Notes under the pieces: model-generated
Told to the model about the DNA's origin: nothing
The model's input: only the letters and a program-made list of their open reading frames with translations
Database searches by the model: none
Shown: piece after piece, positions 20,074-52,829 of the stretch
Layout: each line of letters begins with the position of its first letter
Position numbering within the stretch: the first letter of the stretch is position 1
Made by a program: the position numbers and the translations under genes
NCBI GenBank assembly: GCA_035444565.1
Contig: DAOMOX010000001.1
Location: 450,335 to 514,334, forward strand
From: Candidatus Dojkabacteria bacterium
GTDB lineage: Bacteria; Patescibacteriota; Dojkabacteria; B142; OLB20
Reading direction: 5' to 3'
Length of the DNA stretch: 64,000 bases

Positions 20074-20862
20074 ATGACAAATAATATGAACCAACCAACC
20101 GTTCCAGAGGCAAATCCTGTAATCGAAACTCCTGTTCAACCTGATCCATTTAAAACCGATGGCTATAACGAAGCAGTAAAGCAAGGGAATTCTATGAAAA
20201 TTGTTTTATTGGTAGTTATTTTTCTAATTTTTGGAGTGTTAGTAGCGTATATTTTGATGAATTATTTAGGAGGGGATGAAGAGCCAGAAGTTGTCACTCC
20301 CACAGCGGTTCCAACGGTGGAGGCGACATCTGCAGTAATTGAGCCGACGGTAACACCACCAGGTATTTCTTCAGGTTACAAAGATTTTACATTCCCCGCT
20401 TATATTCCAGACAATAAAGATAATCCATTCACAATTAGCGGTAAAGCTTTAGAAGACTCTGAATCTGCTATATTAGAAGATGAAGGATCAGTAGGCTTTA
20501 CCATCAGCGGAGAAGATTATCAACTAAATGTAAAAGCTTATTTTGAATCTCAAAATACACCGTACAATGAATATTTCTTCCTTGAAAGAGATGGAGCGGA
20601 TACAATAGCAAGAGTGAAACACGATTATATTGAGGCTACTAAAGATCTCTATAAATACGTTAGATCAGATGATGTAAGTGAGACTATTGATTGTAAAGGG
20701 ATGGGTCCAGAGGATATAATCCCCGCTCCTTGCGGACAAGCACGTTATACAAGTTACAATCAAGTTGAAACATTTTATATTCTAGATATCACATGTGATG
20801 CTGATGCTGAAAACGTAACGAAGTGTGATGAAATAGTTAAATCTCTTGAAATTCAATATTAG
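20074..20862 (+). CDS. membrane-anchored extracytoplasmic protein with a conserved C-terminal 4-Cys domain
   Basis: N-terminal TM, a P/T/V linker, and the C-terminal C-x12-PCG-x17-C-x9-C-DEIVKSL module. The same module ends ORFs 32030..32812 and 32870..34642. Confidence 0.5.
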   Translation: MTNNMNQPTVPEANPVIETPVQPDPFKTDGYNEAVKQGNSMKIVLLVVIFLIFGVLVAYILMNYLGGDEEPEVVTPTAVPTVEATSAVIEPTVTPPGISSGYKDFTFPAYIPDNKDNPFTISGKALEDSESAILEDEGSVGFTISGEDYQLNVKAYFESQNTPYNEYFFLERDGADTIARVKHDYIEATKDLYKYVRSDDVSETIDCKGMGPEDIIPAPCGQARYTSYNQVETFYILDITCDADAENVTKCDEIVKSLEIQY

Positions 20863-21254
20863 TTCTCGACGCTTAATCTTTCAAGTTCCTTAAGGATTTC
20901 GGTCTTTCCTTTAAAGCAGTTGTTTTCTGCCACGAGTAAAGGGACCCCTTTCTGATCTTCTGGTATACCACATTTTTCAATACTATTATCAAATCCTCGT
21001 TTATTTAAACTATTGCCTTTTAAACTTTTTATCGATAAATCAATATGATTTGAGTATTCACGAAATTCAATTTCATCTATAGTTTCTTCGCAGAACCCAC
21101 AATCGGAATCGGTATAAAGGACAATCTTGTTAGGATTATTCACTCCATATGTATAATTTAAAACCATTATTAATGCCAAGATATTCACGAGGAATAGGGC
21201 GATTGGACTTTTAGACTTCATTTTAGAATATTTCATGTAGTTATTATAGCTCAT
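20859..21254 (-). CDS. membrane-anchored thioredoxin-fold CxxC protein (extracytoplasmic thiol-disulfide oxidoreductase candidate)
   Basis: N-terminal TM, then VLYTDSDCGFCEETI (a CGFC active site in a glutaredoxin/thioredoxin-like context). Confidence 0.45.
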   Translation of the reverse strand: MSYNNYMKYSKMKSKSPIALFLVNILALIMVLNYTYGVNNPNKIVLYTDSDCGFCEETIDEIEFREYSNHIDLSIKSLKGNSLNKRGFDNSIEKCGIPEDQKGVPLLVAENNCFKGKTEILKELERLSVEN

Positions 21255-32029: not shown

Positions 32030-32812
32030 TTAGACACTTCTCAAGCTTGCTACGATTTTATCGCATTCTTGTAGGCCAGTTTCCGTATCGGCTGTGCAAT
32101 ATATGGAAAGTGTTGCTACACTTTCTATATTGAGGAATGAATCACCACATGGAGCGGACACTGATTCTCCTGTGGATGCGAAATATAATCCTTCGCAGGT
32201 TCCGGAAGTCTTGAAATTACTTCCGTTAACATAAGTATAGGTATTACTACCTCTTTCTGAGGTTAAATTGCTTGTTTGAACACGATATATTTTCCCATAG
32301 TATAGATTTTCAAACCAATTATATTCTCCTACATAACCTGTCCCACCGTATCCTTCGTCTTCGTACTCCTCTTTTATAATTAAAGTAAAGTCCTCACCCT
32401 CAACAAATCCACTATTAGATTCAGTATATGATAGCGGATCTAATTTGACTGACCATTCTGCACTTACTGGTTTTGTTAGTTCATACTTTTTTAGTCTAAC
32501 CGAATTGTCTACTCCTGGTAAATCTACACTGATCTTCTCTGTTGGTACAGAGGTTGGGGTAGTGAGCATTTCTTCGATGATTGTGGGTTGAGTTTTGGTG
32601 GGGTTAATTGATGCAGGCTCATTTGTAGTAAGGTTTATACTTTCGGGTTCATATATTTCCTTAAAGTAGATATATGCTCCAAAAATGAAAAGTGTAATCA
32701 GAAGTAAAATTGCTAAAATAATTACTGCAAATGATTTAGGATTGTTGTTACTCTGTATATAAGTCTCGTCCACAGATGGGGGAGTTGGTTGATTGTTATC
32801 TTCTATATTCAT
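32030..32812 (-). CDS. membrane-anchored extracytoplasmic protein with the conserved C-terminal 4-Cys domain
   Basis: TM, a P/T linker, and ...SGTCEGLYFASTGESVSAPCGDSF...IYCTADTETGLQECDKIVASL. This is a paralogous module to the ends of 20074..20862 and 32870..34642. Confidence 0.5.
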   Translation of the reverse strand: MNIEDNNQPTPPSVDETYIQSNNNPKSFAVIILAILLLITLFIFGAYIYFKEIYEPESINLTTNEPASINPTKTQPTIIEEMLTTPTSVPTEKISVDLPGVDNSVRLKKYELTKPVSAEWSVKLDPLSYTESNSGFVEGEDFTLIIKEEYEDEGYGGTGYVGEYNWFENLYYGKIYRVQTSNLTSERGSNTYTYVNGSNFKTSGTCEGLYFASTGESVSAPCGDSFLNIESVATLSIYCTADTETGLQECDKIVASLRSV

Positions 32813-32869
32813 AATTTTTATTTAAATATTATTAGATATATTAATTAATATATTAGACTTCATAAATAT

Positions 32870-34642
32870 TTATTTTGCAATTGATAGATTGTTGATTATC
32901 TCTTTGCATGTTTTGGTGGCTTTCTCAGGAGTAGTTTTTACTTCACAAGAGATTGTCAGAAACCTAGGACCCTCAGCTGTTTCGAATTTGTAAGAAGTGT
33001 CCACGCAAGGTGATTGTATGGGGTTGCCCAAAAAGTCTTTACAGTCACTTTTCTTGTAATTTCTTGAGTCCGTGAAATAGTAAATAAACTTAGCAGCATA
33101 TTCATGCATCAAAATATTTCCTAGGTATTCGGTATCAATCTCCTCAGGTATCCAATTGGAATAACTAAAGCCATTTTCATACCATTCATTTATTGAGAAT
33201 ACCATATCTTCTGATTCAATTTTAATACTAGCTCGTTCTATATTACTATTGTTCTCGTTTTGTAATCCTTCTGGTAACGTTCCTTCTACAATTATTGCTT
33301 CTCTTCGACTTCCTCCATACTCAGAATCATATACTATTCCGGAGTATGAGTTTTCTGTCGGAATTGTTAAGCGATGTGTTGGCGTAGGCATTACATTTGT
33401 ATCAGTAGGTTGTACAGGTATTGTAGGATTTAAGGATTTCAATCTAAAATAATTTATGTCTTGTATCCATAATACTTCAGCTACTTCAGTCTTTTGTGTG
33501 AAACCACTTACTTCAAGCTCTTTTCCTAATAGAAACTTTCCAATAATAGTAGGTTTTCTTGTTATCTTATCGAAAAGAAAATTACCATCTAAGATATATT
33601 CTTTATTTTCTGTTGAAAAAATTGGGGTGATTATATCCTCACCTGGATTTCTGAGTTCGAATTTCCCATTTCCCAAGTTAATAATCGAAGAAGAAGGGGA
33701 CGTGTTTTTATTAATTGGTTCTAATTGATCTATATATTGACTAAATTCGAAGATGTTATTTGCTTCATCTATAGAAATAATTTCAAACTCATTATAGGTT
33801 TCGATTTGGCTATCTTGTAATGAACTAAACGTGCTAGACGATTCGTTGGATATTGGCAAGTAAGTTTCTTTATCTATGGTAATAACTGCTTCATAGATAG
33901 TCTCGACACGCTTTGTGGCTCCATTAGCCTCTCTTGTGAGTGCTATTCCTGGATAAGTGAAGGTAATTACAAAGACTTCTCGATTGTTAATTTTGTCTTC
34001 TTTTAACTTGTACTGCGAAGATTCTCCTTGTAATAAGTAGTCATAAAAACCCACCAATGATTTTAGCTGTGATCTATGCTCAATCGAAATCATTTCTTCC
34101 GAAAGGTTTCTCCAGTTTGATGTACTACCGTAACTATAACTGTATTCATTTATCCCGTCACTGAAGGTCGCAAATTTTTGAGGGCTGAAATCACGATAAG
34201 ACTTCCCCGGTACCATTTCTGTCGGTAGTAATGTATCTGATTTGGAAACATCATAACGGATTAGATATTTCTCGTCTTGATTAGAAACATAACCCTCTAC
34301 GTCAAAATTGTCATATTCCTCAAAGTCGGTGACAGTTTTGATATTGTAAGAATAATGAAGGATTCCCGGTTTCGCTAACATTTCTTTGAGAGTTTGTTGT
34401 GTTTTTTGTATTACTTCCATTGCGGATACAGGTTTCACCACTTTTCTTTGTTGTTCTTCCGGAAGGAAGAAGACTCCAATTCCAACAACAAAAATTACAA
34501 AAAGGGTTAGTGCAAACTTATAGAATATCCCAAGTCCAGGAGATTTTTCTGGCTTGATTTTTTGTAATACTATTTTGTCGAGTCTGGTTTCTTCATTTTT
34601 ATCTAATTTATTATTGTTCATGAATTGATTTAGATTTTCCAT
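32870..34642 (-). CDS. putative single-pass anti-sigma factor / envelope sensor, with the C-terminal 4-Cys domain
   Basis: It lies immediately downstream of the ECF sigma gene (10-nt gap). It has a short cytoplasmic N-terminus, one TM, and a ~520-aa extracytoplasmic region ending ..CKDFLGNPIQSPCVD...ISCEVKTTPEKATKTCKEIINNL. Confidence 0.45.
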   Translation of the reverse strand: MENLNQFMNNNKLDKNEETRLDKIVLQKIKPEKSPGLGIFYKFALTLFVIFVVGIGVFFLPEEQQRKVVKPVSAMEVIQKTQQTLKEMLAKPGILHYSYNIKTVTDFEEYDNFDVEGYVSNQDEKYLIRYDVSKSDTLLPTEMVPGKSYRDFSPQKFATFSDGINEYSYSYGSTSNWRNLSEEMISIEHRSQLKSLVGFYDYLLQGESSQYKLKEDKINNREVFVITFTYPGIALTREANGATKRVETIYEAVITIDKETYLPISNESSSTFSSLQDSQIETYNEFEIISIDEANNIFEFSQYIDQLEPINKNTSPSSSIINLGNGKFELRNPGEDIITPIFSTENKEYILDGNFLFDKITRKPTIIGKFLLGKELEVSGFTQKTEVAEVLWIQDINYFRLKSLNPTIPVQPTDTNVMPTPTHRLTIPTENSYSGIVYDSEYGGSRREAIIVEGTLPEGLQNENNSNIERASIKIESEDMVFSINEWYENGFSYSNWIPEEIDTEYLGNILMHEYAAKFIYYFTDSRNYKKSDCKDFLGNPIQSPCVDTSYKFETAEGPRFLTISCEVKTTPEKATKTCKEIINNLSIAK

Positions 34643-34652
34643 AATTAGATAT

Positions 34653-35156
34653 TTAATTAATAAAGGTTTGTAATTTATTTATCACTCTATGATGCATAAC
34701 TCTGGCATTTGTTTCACTCATATTTAATACAGAAGCACACTCTGCAAAGTTTAAATTATTCATATATTTAAGTAATAGAAGTTCTTTTTCAATTTCCTTG
34801 AGTTTACTAAATAGGTCTTTTAGCGAGAATTTATTAATCAATGCTGAATCAGAATTATCTTCGATTTCTTCTACATTGTAGTTTTCGATTTCGAAAGAAT
34901 GATCAAATATGGAATTGTCTTTATAGGACTTTCTATAATAATCATTAATTTTGTGTCTACAAATTGCAAAAAGCCATGTTTTATATGTGGATTGTCCTCG
35001 GAAATTATCAAGATTTACCCACGCAGACAAAAATGTCTCTGCAGTTATATCCAGTGCATCTTCCCTTGAATTGGTTTTCGCCAGAGTAAACAAGAAGATG
35101 CTTTGCTTATTCTCTTTATAAAAATCTTCAAAAATCTGTTTTTTGTTTTTCATCAA
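34653..35156 (-). CDS. ECF (group IV) sigma-70 factor
   Basis: Region 2 is DITAETFLSAWVNLDNFRG.STYKTWLFAICRHKINDYYR. Region 4 is LLLLKYMNNLNFAECASVLNMSETNARVMHHRVINKLQ. Confidence 0.85.
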   Translation of the reverse strand: MMKNKKQIFEDFYKENKQSIFLFTLAKTNSREDALDITAETFLSAWVNLDNFRGQSTYKTWLFAICRHKINDYYRKSYKDNSIFDHSFEIENYNVEEIEDNSDSALINKFSLKDLFSKLKEIEKELLLLKYMNNLNFAECASVLNMSETNARVMHHRVINKLQTFIN

Positions 35157-35206
35157 AATTGATTTATTACTAAGGTAGTCGAAAGAGCGTTACAAAACTA
35201 GTTAAC

Positions 35207-35710
35207 TTATTTGAGTTTTCTAACAAAAATCCAATTACGACCAAATAACATATAAATTGAATATGAAAACAACAGAATGATAAATATGGTGATAAATTTT
35301 GAGGGGAATATTGCAAAAAAGTTAGAAATTACTGTGAAAATTGTATTATAAAGCTCACGAACTAATAAAGCAGATATTAGAGTCCCCAAACTTATTGAGT
35401 GAAACACATAAACTAAGTTTACGAATGTACGTTTTAATACTTCGATGATCCATGCACTAAATGTGTATTGCGCTTTACGTCTTTTGGGTCCTTTCGGACC
35501 ACGAATCCATCTGCTTGAGAAGAAAATTATTAGGATAATTAAATAGGTGTAAACAATTCCAAGTCCAGTATATACATCATTAATAATGCTCCAAAATAAT
35601 ATAGAGAATATTAATAAATGGATGCGGAGAAAGAATAACGTGAGTCCATAATCTATCAGAAGAGTCACAACTTTGTGAGCTAAAGGTTTGTTTCCTAATG
35701 TATCAATCAT
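35207..35710 (-). CDS. polytopic membrane protein, hypothetical
   Basis: 167 aa with 4-5 TM. Confidence 0.4.
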   Translation of the reverse strand: MIDTLGNKPLAHKVVTLLIDYGLTLFFLRIHLLIFSILFWSIINDVYTGLGIVYTYLIILIIFFSSRWIRGPKGPKRRKAQYTFSAWIIEVLKRTFVNLVYVFHSISLGTLISALLVRELYNTIFTVISNFFAIFPSKFITIFIILLFSYSIYMLFGRNWIFVRKLK

Positions 35711-36444
35711 CTGTCAAAATTTATCCATTTGCGGAAAAATAGGACTCGTATTATGTAGATTATTAGAGGACCAACCAATAGTGATACAATTCTTGATGCA
35801 TTTTCGACATCAATTGTTGTGTAGTCGAAAGTCTCTAAAAAAAGCCCAAAACCGAATAAGAGTATACTTATAAATATAAATGATAGAATGCGCCTTCCTG
35901 CTGAATTCTCCAAGTTGGTCTTGAGGATTACTGTTACACCTACACTCACCAGAAACACAAAAATCGGCAAAATAATAAAGAGAATAAAGAAGTAAAACTG
36001 TATTACATCCGGAAGCAAATCAGTAATTTGTCTATTAATTTCGGAGCCAAATTGTTTCTCAAAAAAGGTAACTACTAATGCTGTTAATGAGGCAGAGTAG
36101 AGGAAATAGAATATATACTTGAGTGATTTTAAAAAGATTTCTATAGACCAATCGTCGTATGTTAATCTTTTCGATGGGCCTCTCCGTGCTTTTTCTTTGC
36201 TGAGATAGTAACCAACTAGTAAAAACAAAATTGTAAAGAATGAGGAAATCAAACTAATCTCTGTACTAAATAAACCGTTCTTTAAATATGTGAGTAATGT
36301 AATGGTTATGCTTCCCATTATTGGTATAGAAACGAACATGAAAGTGTAGTCTGAAGTCTGTGAAATCAAATCTATAATCTTTCCACTTCTTAGAATTTCG
36401 GACAATCTTTTAAAGAAGGTTACTTGATTAGCATTGGGTTCCAT
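35707..36444 (-). CDS. polytopic membrane protein, hypothetical
   Basis: 245 aa with 6 TM. It overlaps the downstream gene by 4 nt. Confidence 0.4.
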   Translation of the reverse strand: MEPNANQVTFFKRLSEILRSGKIIDLISQTSDYTFMFVSIPIMGSITITLLTYLKNGLFSTEISLISSFFTILFLLVGYYLSKEKARRGPSKRLTYDDWSIEIFLKSLKYIFYFLYSASLTALVVTFFEKQFGSEINRQITDLLPDVIQFYFFILFIILPIFVFLVSVGVTVILKTNLENSAGRRILSFIFISILLFGFGLFLETFDYTTIDVENASRIVSLLVGPLIIYIIRVLFFRKWINFDR

Positions 36445-36446
36445 AT

Positions 36447-37211
36447 TTATTCACTTTTCTCAAGTAGACATTGTTGAAGTTCTTGGGTCATTGTCCAACC
36501 ACATTCGCCATTTGATTGTCGTGCACATTCTGCATTTATATAGCATGCATATTCTTCTCGGTAAGCACAGTCAGTGATTACGTCCTCATCATCTGAACAT
36601 ATTTGACCGCTACAACCACCTATTTTACAACCATCTTTCACTTGTACTGTTTTGAAGCTCACGTAAACTTCTTCTACCTTGTTGTTCTCGGGCATGCCTG
36701 ATGGATTTGCTTTCTCGAAAACTAAAACGCCAGAGTCAGGAAGATTTTCACCCTCAAACTCTAAAGTAGCTTCAAAAGGCACGAAATCCTCGGTCATCCA
36801 TTCAGCACCATCGGTTGTGGTAATTGTAGCAGAGCTGATTTCATTTCCCTCGAGATCTGTAAGGACGACTCTGAATGAACCTTCCCAAAACCAAGTCCCA
36901 GGTGCTTCACCATTTATATCTAATGGACTTTGTATGTATTGATCGGGTAGTGGATTAAACACTTTGATTTCGCCTGTTGGTAACGGTTCTGGTGAAACAG
37001 GCGGAACAGATGTATCAACGAAAGTCCGTCCGTCTGGAGTCATACATTGCTGAGGATAGATATCAAGAATAGGAAAGTTCCATTCCACGCATTCCTCAAA
37101 ACTATTAATTTTCGAAATAGAAAATTGCCTATATCCATAGTAAAGCCCTAGGAAAATCAATACAAAAGCGAGGAAAACTAAAGGAACTAGAAATACTAGA
37201 TATTTTTTCAT
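36447..37211 (-). CDS. secreted/membrane-anchored Cys-rich protein
   Basis: N-terminal TM. The C-terminus has 10+ Cys (CKIGGCSGQICSDDEDVITDCAYREEYACYINAECARQSNGECGWT). Confidence 0.45.
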   Translation of the reverse strand: MKKYLVFLVPLVFLAFVLIFLGLYYGYRQFSISKINSFEECVEWNFPILDIYPQQCMTPDGRTFVDTSVPPVSPEPLPTGEIKVFNPLPDQYIQSPLDINGEAPGTWFWEGSFRVVLTDLEGNEISSATITTTDGAEWMTEDFVPFEATLEFEGENLPDSGVLVFEKANPSGMPENNKVEEVYVSFKTVQVKDGCKIGGCSGQICSDDEDVITDCAYREEYACYINAECARQSNGECGWTMTQELQQCLLEKSE

Positions 37212-37272
37212 ATGAGTATGATAACTAATACTAAAGTATAGTAAAAATAGAGGATGAATGCGATAGAACTCT

Positions 37273-38004
37273 TTATTTGCTATAAATTACACTAGGTGCA
37301 TTACCTTTGAAATTGTATGCATTCTCAGTGATTGTAAGTTTTTCAGTATCTAGCCCTGTGACGCTTTTTACTATTGTTTCGGTAGCAATCGTTAAAGCTT
37401 TGTTTGCTTGGTCGGCGGGTAGTCCTAGTCGGTTTATCTCAATAGATTCTGTGTCTAAGCTCAATTCATTATTTGTGATTTCAGTTTTTGCTTTTAGGTA
37501 AAAAGCTGGATTAGATCCTAATTTCTCAATCCAGTTTAAACCTTTGTCAACATTCTCCTCGGAGTATCCACCATATCCGGCAATACTCGCGAAATTCTTT
37601 AATTTACTGGTTATAAGGTTTCCGGAAACTTCGATAATCCCTCCATCTGAAAATTTAACTTGTACATTCTCAACTGGCATGGAAGACCAGTTTGAATAAT
37701 TAATTCTTGCCGAAATTTCGCTATTTGAGAAAGACATGTCATATGGTTTAGGTGATGTGAAGACTATTCCTGGTCCAGTTTGTAATTCTTCGGGCGCTTT
37801 ATCAAACGAAAGTACTTGTGATTCGGTTTTTGCCATGAATTCATCATAATCTTCCTCGGTATATGTGACTCCGAGGTCCTTTGGTTTTGTAACATTAAAG
37901 AAATCTCCAGGCATTGGAATGATTCCGAAATAACCCAGGAGTAGGATTCCACCGACAGTAAGTAAGACTACAAAAACAAGGAGAATAGTTAGGGACTTTT
38001 TCAT
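37273..38004 (-). CDS. membrane-anchored extracytoplasmic protein, hypothetical (first gene of the operon ending in the ECF sigma cluster)
   Basis: N-terminal TM with a soluble beta-rich domain. Confidence 0.45.
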   Translation of the reverse strand: MKKSLTILLVFVVLLTVGGILLLGYFGIIPMPGDFFNVTKPKDLGVTYTEEDYDEFMAKTESQVLSFDKAPEELQTGPGIVFTSPKPYDMSFSNSEISARINYSNWSSMPVENVQVKFSDGGIIEVSGNLITSKLKNFASIAGYGGYSEENVDKGLNWIEKLGSNPAFYLKAKTEITNNELSLDTESIEINRLGLPADQANKALTIATETIVKSVTGLDTEKLTITENAYNFKGNAPSVIYSK

Positions 38005-38074
38005 CTATCGTCAATAATAGATTAAATATGAAATTTGATTGTACTATATCACTAAATGTGTAAAACGGAAAGAC

Positions 38075-38310
38075 ACCGGATAGTCACTCCGTGCTTCACT
38101 TACCATACCAGAAGAGGATCGCTGCCTCCGCTGTCTCTCCGGGGTTTAACCGCGGAGTCCCGTTATTATTCTCACATCAACTTATAGGATAAACGGGATC
38201 CCGTGCTTCCCTCCCTTCCGGCAGGGCAGGCAACCACGGGATGACCTCAGGGGTCGCTTTCGCCATCCACTTATCCTACCGTAAGGGAGGGACCGCGGAG
38301 TCCCGTAAAT
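38075..38310. repeat. GC-rich double-hairpin repeat element cluster, locus 1
   Basis: Copies of module B (gtctctccGGGGtttaaCCGCGGAGtcccgttattattctcac..aacttatagg) and of module A with an inserted segment (gatCCCGTGcttccctcccttccggcagggcaggcaacCACGGGatgacctcagggg). Confidence 0.6.
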
Positions 38311-38382
38311 CCCACAAGTAGTAATTGTAATAACAACCTCATAGTTATATATTATTATTACCTACTTTTTATCAATATAAAT

Positions 38383-44211: not shown

Positions 44212-44991
44212 ATGAAACTAACGGATTCCCCACAAACGTATCGTAAGCTTAAATTGTACAATCTCGTTATGGGATTTCTACATCTTTTGCAAGGTGTTTT
44301 GATGGTCGTTGTCAGTAATGACACATCAGCGAAGTTAACTACTGAGTTTTTGAAGTTTGATACACAGGCGATGCAGGTATTGCAAGAGAAAGAGGTCCTC
44401 TTTGAATTGCCATTAGGTTATTCAGTAGCAGTTTTCCTGTTTATGTCCGCTTTGGCTCATTTCATTATTGGCACAGTATATTTCCCCAAATATGTTGAAA
44501 ATCTTAAAAAAGGTGCTAATTACGCTAGATGGATTGAATATGCATTTAGTTCGTCATGGATGATTGTGATTATCGGGATTTTGGTTGGAATGTTTGATGC
44601 CCCAAGTTTGATTTTACTGTTCTTCTTGAACATGATGATGATTTTGTTTGGATATGTTATGGAATTGCATAATCAAACGACATCCAAGACAGATTGGACA
44701 TCATTCATCTATGGTTGTATCGCAGGTGCAGTTCCTTGGGTAGTGATGGGTTGGTATTTCTATGGGGCAGTTCAAAACACAAATGAAGTCGCAGTTGTTC
44801 CAAACTTTGTTTACGGAATTTTCATCTCGCTACTAGTCTTCTTCAATGTTTTCGCTATCAATATGATCCTGCAATACAAAAGAGTTGGAAGATGGAAAAA
44901 TTATCTTTTTGGAGAGGTAGTCTATATTGCTCTAAGTTTAGTAGCTAAATCATTACTAGCTTGGCAAGTATGGAGTGGGACACTTCGCTAG
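44212..44991 (+). CDS. heliorhodopsin (7-TM microbial rhodopsin with inverted topology)
   Basis: 259 aa with 7 TM. Near-collinear motif identity with the type heliorhodopsin 48C12 as recalled: LYNLVMGFLHLLQG, RWIEYAFSSSWMIV, FIYGCIAGAVPW, VPNFVYGIFISLLVFFN, and QYKRVGRWKNYLFGEVVYIALSLVAKSLLAWQVWSGTL with the TM7 Schiff-base Lys (SLVAKS). Confidence 0.85.
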   Translation: MKLTDSPQTYRKLKLYNLVMGFLHLLQGVLMVVVSNDTSAKLTTEFLKFDTQAMQVLQEKEVLFELPLGYSVAVFLFMSALAHFIIGTVYFPKYVENLKKGANYARWIEYAFSSSWMIVIIGILVGMFDAPSLILLFFLNMMMILFGYVMELHNQTTSKTDWTSFIYGCIAGAVPWVVMGWYFYGAVQNTNEVAVVPNFVYGIFISLLVFFNVFAINMILQYKRVGRWKNYLFGEVVYIALSLVAKSLLAWQVWSGTLR

Positions 44992-51890: not shown

Positions 51891-52829
51891 ATGGCAAAAG
51901 AAAAAACAGAGGAAATAGTTACAGAAACACCTCCAAAACACAAAAAGCCCACCGATTCAAAAGTATTACTTAATGCGGGAAGCATTTTACTTGGTGGCGT
52001 TTTGATATCAATGGCAATATTATTCTCCGGAAATGGTTTCTCCTTTGGATCGTCAGACACAGAGAATGCAACTGGAGAGGTTGCAGGTGATTGTTCTGGG
52101 GAAAACCGTTTTGGTGAGGGTTGTTATGATCAATACGCACAGGACTTGGAATTGGATTTGACAAAATTCCAGGAATGCGTTGAAGGCGAAAATTATTATG
52201 ATGTAATAGATAGTGAGTTGGCAGCGGGAGAAAAATTTGGAGTTCAGGGAACACCCTCATTTTACCTCGGAAAAGGCAATGGTGAAGAATTTGATGGGTT
52301 TTACGTAGGAGGATTAAGAATCCAAGAATTAGAAACGCTCATAGGAAAACTTGAAAAAGAAGATGTTGCTTCTGTAAACAAATATTGGACTGATTATTTA
52401 AAAAATAGTGTACAAGAATATGCACCCCAGGTACGTGAATATTATGCATCCGCCGAAGGAGGATCACTTACAGGTGATGCACTTGAAAGTGCTGTTGAGG
52501 GATATATCAATGAGCAGACAACAAGTGTTAATACTGATTATGTAGTAAGGAAACTAAATGCTGGTGATGGGCTTACACAAGGAGACGGCGAGATTGTGAT
52601 GATGGAGTTTAGTGATTATGAATGCCCTTACTGCCAGACTTTTGCAAATGATGTATTGATAGAAGCAAAAGAAAAATTCGTGGACACAGGTAAAGCAAGA
52701 TACATTTATCGTGATTTTCCTCTTGAAAATATTCACCCAAGTGCTCGTTCTGCAGCAAATGCAGCTCGCTGTGCAGGTGATCAAGGGAAATATTTCGATT
52801 ACCACGATAAACTATTTGAAATTAACTAA
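51891..52829 (+). CDS. membrane-anchored DsbA-like thioredoxin-fold protein with an unusual (permuted or truncated) domain order
   Basis: N-terminal TM. In the middle, ..FQECVEG..FGVQGTPSFYLGKGNGEEFDGF..LETLI resembles the C-terminal half of DsbA. The CxxC N-terminal half (MEFSDYECPYCQTF...FPL..IHP...AARCAGDQGKYFDYHDKLF) then follows and the protein ends. Confidence 0.5.
   Translation: MAKEKTEEIVTETPPKHKKPTDSKVLLNAGSILLGGVLISMAILFSGNGFSFGSSDTENATGEVAGDCSGENRFGEGCYDQYAQDLELDLTKFQECVEGENYYDVIDSELAAGEKFGVQGTPSFYLGKGNGEEFDGFYVGGLRIQELETLIGKLEKEDVASVNKYWTDYLKNSVQEYAPQVREYYASAEGGSLTGDALESAVEGYINEQTTSVNTDYVVRKLNAGDGLTQGDGEIVMMEFSDYECPYCQTFANDVLIEAKEKFVDTGKARYIYRDFPLENIHPSARSAANAARCAGDQGKYFDYHDKLFEIN

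Follow-up and report, generated by a model that had tools for sequence, protein, structure and literature searches.

The question raised by this locus is how an extracytoplasmic function (ECF) sigma factor might be linked to the cell envelope in a bacterium of the candidate phyla radiation, and what part is played in that link by a four-cysteine (four-Cys) domain carried on the proteins encoded next to it. The locus lies in a 64-kb stretch of the Candidatus Dojkabacteria contig DAOMOX010000001.1 (positions 450,335 to 514,334 of the forward strand; G+C content, 35%), referred to below as the window. On its minus strand, the sigma gene is followed by genes for a membrane protein of 590 amino acids (aa), the long protein, and for a membrane protein of 260 aa, the short protein; a third protein with the domain, of 262 aa, is encoded elsewhere in the window. 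We found that the sigma factor, the long protein as a candidate anti-sigma factor and the short protein as their partner form a genuine conserved module, with good support for the protein family and its anatomy and an inferred mechanism. The four-Cys domain probably helps to signal across the membrane, because its pairing with the sigma factor is conserved and because it is sometimes fused to a sigma factor. Related loci and proteins from other genomes are numbered L and P, respectively.

The four-cysteine domain and its family

A previous reading of the DNA, made from the sequence only (the sequence-only reading), had noticed a C-terminal module with four Cys in each of the long, short and 262-aa proteins, and this was borne out. 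A four-Cys regular expression run over the six frames of the 64 kb gave exactly three copies, and a broad hidden Markov model of the family, applied to all 332 stop-to-stop open reading frames (ORFs) of the window, returned the same three proteins and no others. The short and 262-aa proteins are paralogous over their full length (BLASTP, 8e-14), and the long and short proteins are similar across ~120 residues (BLASTP, 1e-4); a profile built from orthologues of the long protein only recovered the 262-aa protein at 1.6e-7 and the short protein at 5e-4, with the next ORF at 0.27. The four Cys of the module are the sole Cys of each of the three proteins.

The module had been described by a Cys-spacing formula and as about 60 aa in length. 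The pattern of four Cys stood, also when more homologues were aligned, whereas the exact spacing did not: the residues between successive Cys number 15/16/10 in the short protein, 11/19/12 in the long protein and 12/20/9 in the 262-aa protein, and 7-16, 11-27 and 6-17 across the family. The length had to be revised, as the unit comprises at least 115-125 aa according to the profile and AlphaFold, and ~160 aa according to the period of tandem repeats; the 60 aa first noticed correspond to the C-terminal half of an alpha/beta domain that spans about 120-160 aa. The alignment of both families of the domain contains five invariant residues (C, PC, C and C) in a block of ~120 aa, for which AlphaFold2, supplied with 16 sequences, produced a model with a mean predicted local distance difference test (pLDDT) value of 91.7 and a predicted template modelling score of 0.84. 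In this model, a mixed beta-sheet is combined with three helices, the last of which bears the fourth Cys (C4). We set the domain at ~160 aa because proteins with two copies have a repeat period of 150-178 aa, most often 164, and because the full-length model of the long protein has extra strands (residues 431-476) before the four-Cys core. Each of the four Cys is found in 97-99% of the 117 copies aligned (all four in 116 of the 117 once alignment shifts were inspected), and in a set of 48 diverse domains, whose mean column identity is 24%, no column but these four is invariant. The only Cys-deficient member, P0097, has lost the third and fourth Cys (C3 and C4) together and retained the first two (C1 and C2).

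The suggestion that the module lies outside described families was upheld by profile searches of databases, which assigned it to no known domain. Pfam gave no matches in the domain of the window proteins and no family common to any two of the 48 diverse members, and NCBIfam gave no matches to the domain; the best hit of a profile search against PDB sequences had an E value of 0.29, and the best Foldseek hits of the domain model had E values of 0.31 in PDB (template modelling score, 0.32) and 0.36 in BFVD. A Bet v 1/START-like fold was also considered and rejected, as the Foldseek template modelling scores of 0.16-0.19 amount to noise. The four-Cys domain is thus an undescribed alpha/beta domain.

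An exhaustive hmmsearch of 1.84 billion representative sequences detected 89 proteins with the domain at E<=1e-3, 22 of them at E<=1e-10. Nearly all have one N-terminal hydrophobic anchor, a predicted transmembrane (TM) helix, and in most the domain stands at or near the C-terminus; it occurs as single copies, as tandem pairs and in combination with other modules, namely SLH domains in P0075 (2.4e-20) and pacifastin/VWC-like Cys-rich modules in P0037, P0058 and P0074. Because of this co-occurrence, we place the domain at the cell surface. A word-indexed protein search with the diverse family profile yielded three proteins only, and the taxonomic range of the family accordingly rests on the few members that carry organism names: P0001, P0017 and P0062 are assigned to Candidatus Dojkabacteria, and P0023, with identical synteny, is labelled Woesebacteria, so that the family appears lineage-restricted, its named members being mostly Candidatus Dojkabacteria. 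Two Flavobacterium matches in a contig profile scan were spurious, being matches to the TM segment, and the 'YycI' label given to P0040 by JGI was unsupported by Pfam.

This distribution raises the alternative that the domain is a general surface module (for adhesion, cell-wall or host binding) of episymbiotic-type bacteria, that its presence on the candidate anti-sigma factor is incidental, and that the short protein is a member of the regulon and not a regulator. In keeping with that alternative, the majority of the 89 representatives are simple proteins of a TM helix, a stalk and the domain, the partner modules SLH and pacifastin/VWC-like are typical of surface proteins, and no sigma gene neighbours the domain in L013, in L014 or at the 262-aa gene of the window. 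In L014 (6001-8995), three consecutive genes encode the domain, first as a tandem pair and then as two single copies, which looks like a local expansion of the family. The 262-aa protein itself has an orthologue, P0031, which is 42% identical and lies in conserved synteny. We nevertheless rate this alternative as somewhat unlikely, on account of the gene order and the fusions described below; what ECF signalling has recruited here is a general surface module.

The conserved three-gene unit

The seven minus-strand ORFs that the sequence-only reading had listed from 38004 down to 32030 are all exactly in place, as is the unlinked ORF at 20074..20862. The seven had been taken for one operon; they are co-directional in the window, but the arrangement is not kept in other loci, where the core consists of three genes. 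The order sigma, long (585-593 aa) and short (253-266 aa) is kept in L001-L004, L012 and L018, the short gene always being directly downstream of the long gene, and the pairing of sigma and long genes is strict in seven loci, which include L017. The triad of L012 has unrelated flanks, a sigma factor 62% identical to that of the window and a long protein ~30% identical, and in general the genes around the triad differ between loci. The conserved transcription unit is the triad with its own upstream motif, not the seven genes.

This motif, TGTAACGC-N5-CGACTAC, precedes the sigma gene without a mismatch in L001-L004, L017 and L018 and with one mismatch (CGACTAT) in L012. Its 3' end is 19-24 nt from the sigma ATG, an AGT follows 3-4 nt after it, and the flanking DNA is otherwise unalignable in L004, L012, L017 and L018. 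The element is single in the window when up to three mismatches are allowed, and no link from the sigma factor to the 262-aa gene or to the promoter of the 243-aa gene upstream was found in the window. A metagenome motif scan yielded at least 120 matches; because, among the matches listed, all but L097, a genuine sigma locus, are due to chance, no regulon was derived from it. The TGTAAC of the element resembles the -35 of SigX-type ECF promoters, and the element is a candidate for an autoregulated ECF promoter.

The identification of the sigma gene product as an ECF sigma factor was confirmed: it scored 75.8 bits with TIGR02937 (cut-off, 42.9), 41.3 bits with Sigma70_r2 (cut-off, 24) and 34 bits with Sigma70_r4_2 (cut-off, 25.7), and it consists of the sigma-2 and sigma-4 domains only. 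Its likely start is the ATG at 35153, because its orthologues, which are 62-93% identical, have 165-167 aa. The best subfamily models were SigM (1.3e-24) and SigX (9e-21), although the scores with the NCBIfam models of SigM (86.8 vs 147.95 bits), SigX (74.4 vs 260 bits) and SigW (48.9 vs 209 bits) were all below the cut-offs.

The long gene begins 10 bp past the sigma stop codon in the same orientation, and the single-pass topology proposed for its product was confirmed, with one TM helix at residues 38-60. An adjacent and co-oriented gene, a single TM helix and an N-terminal cytoplasmic segment are the gene context and topology expected of a membrane anti-sigma factor, and ECF neighbourhoods typically contain a putative anti-sigma factor, which has been reported for 114 of 157 ECF groups (PMC7826278). 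An AlphaFold model of the long protein from 11 sequences had a mean pLDDT of 75, with most 10-residue blocks of residues 70-305 between 83 and 96. In a Foldseek search, this segment matched a LolA-like protein (4mxt; E=1.7e-6, probability 1.0, target-normalized template modelling score 0.63), RseB (3m4w; 4e-6), LprG (1.6e-5) and MucB (3.7e-4). No sequence-level Pfam match to LolA-like families was detected in the long protein, and for this reason we assign its modelled ectodomain to the LolA-like superfamily at the fold level only. Proteins of this superfamily act in anti-sigma control (10.1101/2025.01.13.632879). Between distant orthologues of the long protein, identity amounts to 45% over residues 1-30 and to 52% over the juxtamembrane residues 61-92, compared with 30% overall; the conservation of the N-terminal tail fits a sigma-binding peptide that faces a sigma factor conserved at 62%.

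It is therefore plausible, from gene order and predicted topology, that the long protein is the anti-sigma factor. Alternatively, it could be a co-transcribed envelope protein, for example a LolA-like handler of lipids or lipoproteins, with the sigma factor controlled in some other way. No class I anti-sigma domain (zf-HC2, RskA, Sigma_reg_N and others) was matched in the long protein in Pfam or NCBIfam, and its cytoplasmic tail comprises only ~37 residues, modelled at low confidence, both of which would suit such a protein. Against it, the gap behind the sigma gene is that of a gene in the position where most ECF groups have a putative anti-sigma factor, the sigma-long pairing does not break in any of the seven loci, conservation is higher in the tail than in the ectodomain, CnrY is an example of a short class II anti-sigma domain of comparable size, and RseB and MucB, among the closest fold matches, are regulators of sigma-E and AlgU. 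We consider this alternative unlikely.

The short protein has a near-invariant TM helix (residues 27-55, AVIILAILLLITLFIFGAYIYFKEIYEP), whereas the ectodomains of its orthologues (the proteins overall) are only 45-52% identical, suggesting that the helix interacts within the membrane. In L017, where the short gene is absent, the long protein (P0024) ends in a short-type domain that shares 68% identity with P0014; by comparison, the long and short domains of the window are only ~26% identical. The same degree of identity, 68%, is seen between the C-terminus of P0028 and P0027, which is the short protein of L012. The domain swap together with the absent short gene in L017 suggests that the two copies are functionally linked. 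In other genomes, moreover, an ECF sigma factor is followed in the same polypeptide by hydrophobic segments and one or two four-Cys domains (P0036, seen in two samples; P0062, which is NCBI MCA9381408.1 from Dojkabacteria; and P0113), and the three fusion proteins are divergent in sequence. These observations suggest that two copies of the domain act as a unit, the tandem pair in cis elsewhere corresponding to a pair in trans here. They also speak against an incidental surface module: the domain is joined directly to an ECF sigma factor in three divergent proteins, the short gene stays directly behind the long gene over deep divergence, and where it is missing, in L017, its domain type is found on the long protein.

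Cysteine chemistry and a proposed mechanism

The four-Cys domain combines an even number of conserved Cys with a predicted location outside the membrane, as a disulfide-stabilized extracytoplasmic domain would. It probably contains two disulfides, C1-C2 and C3-C4; this proposal is based on the topology, the even Cys count, the variant P0097 and a membrane DsbA-like protein with a CPYC motif, and the pairing is hinted at by the loss of C3 and C4 and the retention of C1 and C2 in P0097. The DsbA-like protein had been pointed out at 51891..52829 in the sequence-only reading and was recognized as such, with 85.5 bits for Thioredoxin_4 (cut-off, 23.2) and 43 bits for DSBA (cut-off, 25.6); it has an N-terminal TM helix and is predicted to be membrane-anchored. 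The order of its Pfam halves is permuted, positions 126-190 of DSBA aligning with residues 80-151 and positions 16-88 of Thioredoxin_4 with residues 236-310, which could reflect circular permutation, a domain rearrangement or an assembly artefact. The second thiol-oxidoreductase candidate, a small membrane-anchored protein with a CGFC motif (20859..21254), gave a weak Glrx-like match (E=0.13; 13.1 bits vs a cut-off of 26). Its counterpart in L015 (3259-3636) has CEFC and is 36% identical, and in both genomes the gene with the CxFC motif is the convergent neighbour of a 262-type four-Cys gene; this linkage may be mere general synteny, because the flanking genes are conserved too.

Four invariant, loosely spaced Cys would equally suit the binding of a metal, as structural zinc or an Fe-S cluster, in which case the domain would be a metal or redox sensor. 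In the sigma fusions, the domain would face the cytoplasm, where disulfides are unlikely, should both hydrophobic segments cross the membrane. By contrast, the dominant architecture of an N-terminal TM helix and a Pro/Thr-rich stalk predicts a location outside the cell, the domain occurs with disulfide-rich extracellular modules, conserved His/Asp/Cys pairs of the CxxC type are absent, P0097 has lost C3 and C4 as a pair, as two independent disulfides would predict, and the window codes for a DsbA-like protein with CPYC. Metal binding is accordingly very doubtful.

We propose the following mechanism for the three-gene ECF signalling module. The sigma factor would be transcribed from its own conserved and probably autoregulated promoter. 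The long protein, most likely the anti-sigma factor, would hold it at the membrane through a cytoplasmic N-terminal peptide of ~30 residues, which would represent a minimal anti-sigma domain similar to the short class II (CnrY-type) domains, and its ectodomain may sense the envelope through the LolA/RseB-like module, predicted to bind a hydrophobic ligand, and the four-Cys domain. The short protein would present a paralogous four-Cys domain on its Pro/Thr-rich stalk, and the DsbA-like membrane protein could form the two disulfides of the domain. The copies on the anti-sigma candidate and on the short protein may pair in trans, as suggested by the tandem pairs elsewhere, including pairs fused behind an ECF sigma factor, and the state of the pair (ligand, redox or integrity) would control the release of the sigma factor by proteolysis or conformational change.

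Several observations weigh against this proposal. No known anti-sigma domain was found in the long protein (Pfam, E<=1; NCBIfam, E<=0.1). The sequence-only reading had called for a structure model to look for an N-terminal anti-sigma helix; two short helices did appear, but at low confidence. The gap between TGTAAC and CGAC in the cis element is 7 nt, unlike the standard -35/-10 geometry, so that the promoter reading is incomplete. The disulfide pairing is based on a single natural variant, P0097. In the sigma fusions, two hydrophobic segments lie between the sigma factor and the domain and make the topology ambiguous, and with both of them spanning the membrane the fused domain would be on the cytoplasmic side. 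Finally, since many family members, like those of L013, L014 and the 262-aa gene, have no sigma gene alongside, the domain is not dedicated to sigma control. With these points taken into account, we lean slightly towards the full mechanism as proposed.

A more specific reading is that the four-Cys domain, a fold without a solved relative, is a lineage-specific extracytoplasmic switch: the two copies would form a disulfide-dependent heterodimer, comparable to the tandem pair of the sigma fusions, and its disruption by redox change, ligand or envelope damage would free the sigma factor. We regard this specific version as rather improbable.

Neighbouring genes and relation to known systems

The positions of the features are collected in Table 1. 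The four genes upstream of the triad vary between loci: none of the four is present in L012 and L017, and their homologues in L018 sit on the opposite strand, including the gene of the 254-aa protein, which is opposite to sigma there. The 243-aa protein received no family assignment; its gene, absent from L012 and L017, has its own separate conserved upstream block. The 254-aa protein scored 43.1 bits with Gmad2, above the cut-off, and matched TIGR04289 at E=4e-7, below the cut-off, and PF27854 is precomputed for its orthologues; it is a second Cys-rich secreted protein in the neighbourhood of the sigma gene. The 245-aa and 167-aa polytopic proteins are weak paralogues (BLASTP, E=0.017), neither of which is encoded in L004. 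In P0016, a protein of 207 aa from a 1.3-kb contig, the N-terminus is that of a short protein of the four-Cys family and the C-terminus resembles that of the 167-aa protein; P0016 is probably a deletion or an assembly chimera.

Table 1. Positions of the triad, its domains, the paralogue and the neighbouring genes in the window
Feature	Position	Strand	Remarks
ECF (group 4) sigma factor, 166-167 aa	34653..35156	-	Sigma70_r2, Sigma70_r4_2, TIGR02937
Conserved cis element TGTAACGCTCTTTCGACTAC	35175..35194	-	19 nt upstream of sigma ATG at 35153
Long protein, 590-aa single-pass membrane protein, candidate anti-sigma factor	32870..34642	-	AlphaFold, Foldseek, gene order
Long protein, cytoplasmic peptide	residues 1-37 (34532-34642)	-	
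Long protein, TM helix	residues 38-60 (34463-34531)	-	
Long protein, LolA/RseB-like domain (by model)	about residues 70-305 (33728-34435)	-	
Long protein, beta domain	residues 315-400		
Long protein, disordered linker	residues 403-430		
Long protein, C-terminal four-Cys domain	residues 431/475-590		
Long protein, four-Cys core	residues 475-590 (32873..33220)	-	Cys534, Cys546, Cys566, Cys579
Short protein, 260-aa type II membrane protein	32030..32812	-	Short cytoplasmic tail, conserved TM helix, Pro/Thr-rich stalk, four-Cys domain
Short protein, four-Cys domain	residues 137-260 (nt 32033-32404)	-	Cys206, Cys222, Cys239, Cys250
262-aa unlinked paralogue	20074..20862	+	Architecture as 260-aa protein; Cys207, Cys220, Cys241, Cys251
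262-aa protein, four-Cys domain	residues 144-262 (nt 20503-20859)	+	
243-aa protein, N-terminally anchored or secreted	37273..38004	-	Outside conserved core, variable upstream neighbour
254-aa protein, secreted or anchored, Gmad2 Ig-like and C-terminal eight-Cys 'heavy_Cys' domain	36447..37211	-	
Polytopic membrane protein, 245 aa	35707..36444	-	Dispensable neighbour
Polytopic membrane protein, 167 aa	35207..35710	-	Dispensable neighbour

A generic sigma-70 promoter scan returned fewer promoter-like sites than in shuffled sequence and about equal numbers of terminator-like sites. In related genomes, the sigma cluster has a heliorhodopsin gene (PF18761) at a distance of a few kb (L001, 181-960; L004, 54-776), and the window ORF 44212-44991 (259 aa) equals the heliorhodopsin of related genomes in length, the comparison being one of length only. 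Between the divergent genes at 38004 (-) and 38383 (+), we observed an island (38070-38330) whose G+C content is 57%, against 35% in general. It folds into a hairpin that is long and irregular (minus strand, z = -4.3; plus strand, z = -3.9), and it holds two direct copies of a 15-nt repeat, ACCGCGGAGTCCCGT, 143 nt apart. The island is not in the equivalent spacer of L001-L004, and Rfam gave no match to it even at E<=1; its minus-strand CCGGAAGGGAGGGAAGCA is reminiscent of domain IV of signal recognition particle RNA, and the island may be an unrecognized structured RNA.

Among known systems, sigma-E/RseA/RseB of Escherichia coli and AlgU/MucA/MucB of Pseudomonas aeruginosa likewise combine an ECF sigma factor, a single-pass anti-sigma factor and a LolA-like extracytoplasmic regulator, and the structures that residues 70-305 of the long protein match best in fold include RseB (3m4w, 2v43) and MucB (6in9). 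Unlike in those systems, where the LolA-like module is a separate soluble protein, it is here part of the anti-sigma candidate; in contrast to RseA, a class I anti-sigma domain is undetectable in the long protein in Pfam and NCBIfam, and the membrane-anchored four-Cys third component has no counterpart in the sigma-E and AlgU systems. The ECF operons of Bacillus subtilis, sigM-yhdL-yhdK and those of the sigX/sigW type, consist of a sigma factor, an anti-sigma factor and an accessory membrane protein. The three-gene layout of sigM-yhdL-yhdK is alike, although the partners are not homologous; the sigma factor of the window scores far below the SigM and SigX cut-offs, and TGTAAC and CGAC are 7 nt apart here, not 17.

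The CnrH/CnrY/CnrX system of Cupriavidus metallidurans, in which CnrX is a helical metal sensor, resembles the proposed module in having a very short cytoplasmic anti-sigma peptide and a separate membrane-anchored extracytoplasmic sensor that acts from outside, yet there is no sequence similarity, the gene order is different and the long protein has a large ectodomain of its own. The zinc-binding anti-sigma (ZAS) factors, such as RsrA, also tie Cys-based chemistry to ECF control; their HxxxCxxC motifs are cytoplasmic, bind zinc and lie within the sigma-binding domain, whereas the Cys described here have a different pattern and lie in a C-terminal domain predicted to be extracytoplasmic. ECF sigma factors with C-terminal extensions (ECF41, ECF42 and ECF52) are comparable to P0036, P0062 and P0113, which are extended by hydrophobic segments and sensor-like domains; the extension in the latter is the four-Cys domain, which has no Pfam or NCBIfam model and no solved-structure match, the comparison being with these databases only, and the window holds the unfused, three-gene version. 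The CnrH system, with its class II anti-sigma factor, corresponds to ECF291 (PMC7826278), and ECF52 is described as a group of TM-containing ECF sigma factors in PMC5826349.

The logic of an ECF sigma factor with a membrane anti-sigma factor is already familiar, the family is narrow and its function is inferred. What is new is an undescribed four-Cys domain, ready to be entered in databases as a family, that is found as stand-alone surface proteins, as tandem pairs and in fusions with sigma factors. If the switch reading is true, it would represent an extracytoplasmic, thiol-based counterpart of the cytoplasmic redox switches of the ZAS/RsrA type, in a bacterium of the candidate phyla radiation with a minimal regulatory repertoire. 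Hardly anything is known of environmental sensing by these bacteria, and with the three proteins of this locus, envelope signalling in an uncultured lineage can be put to the test.

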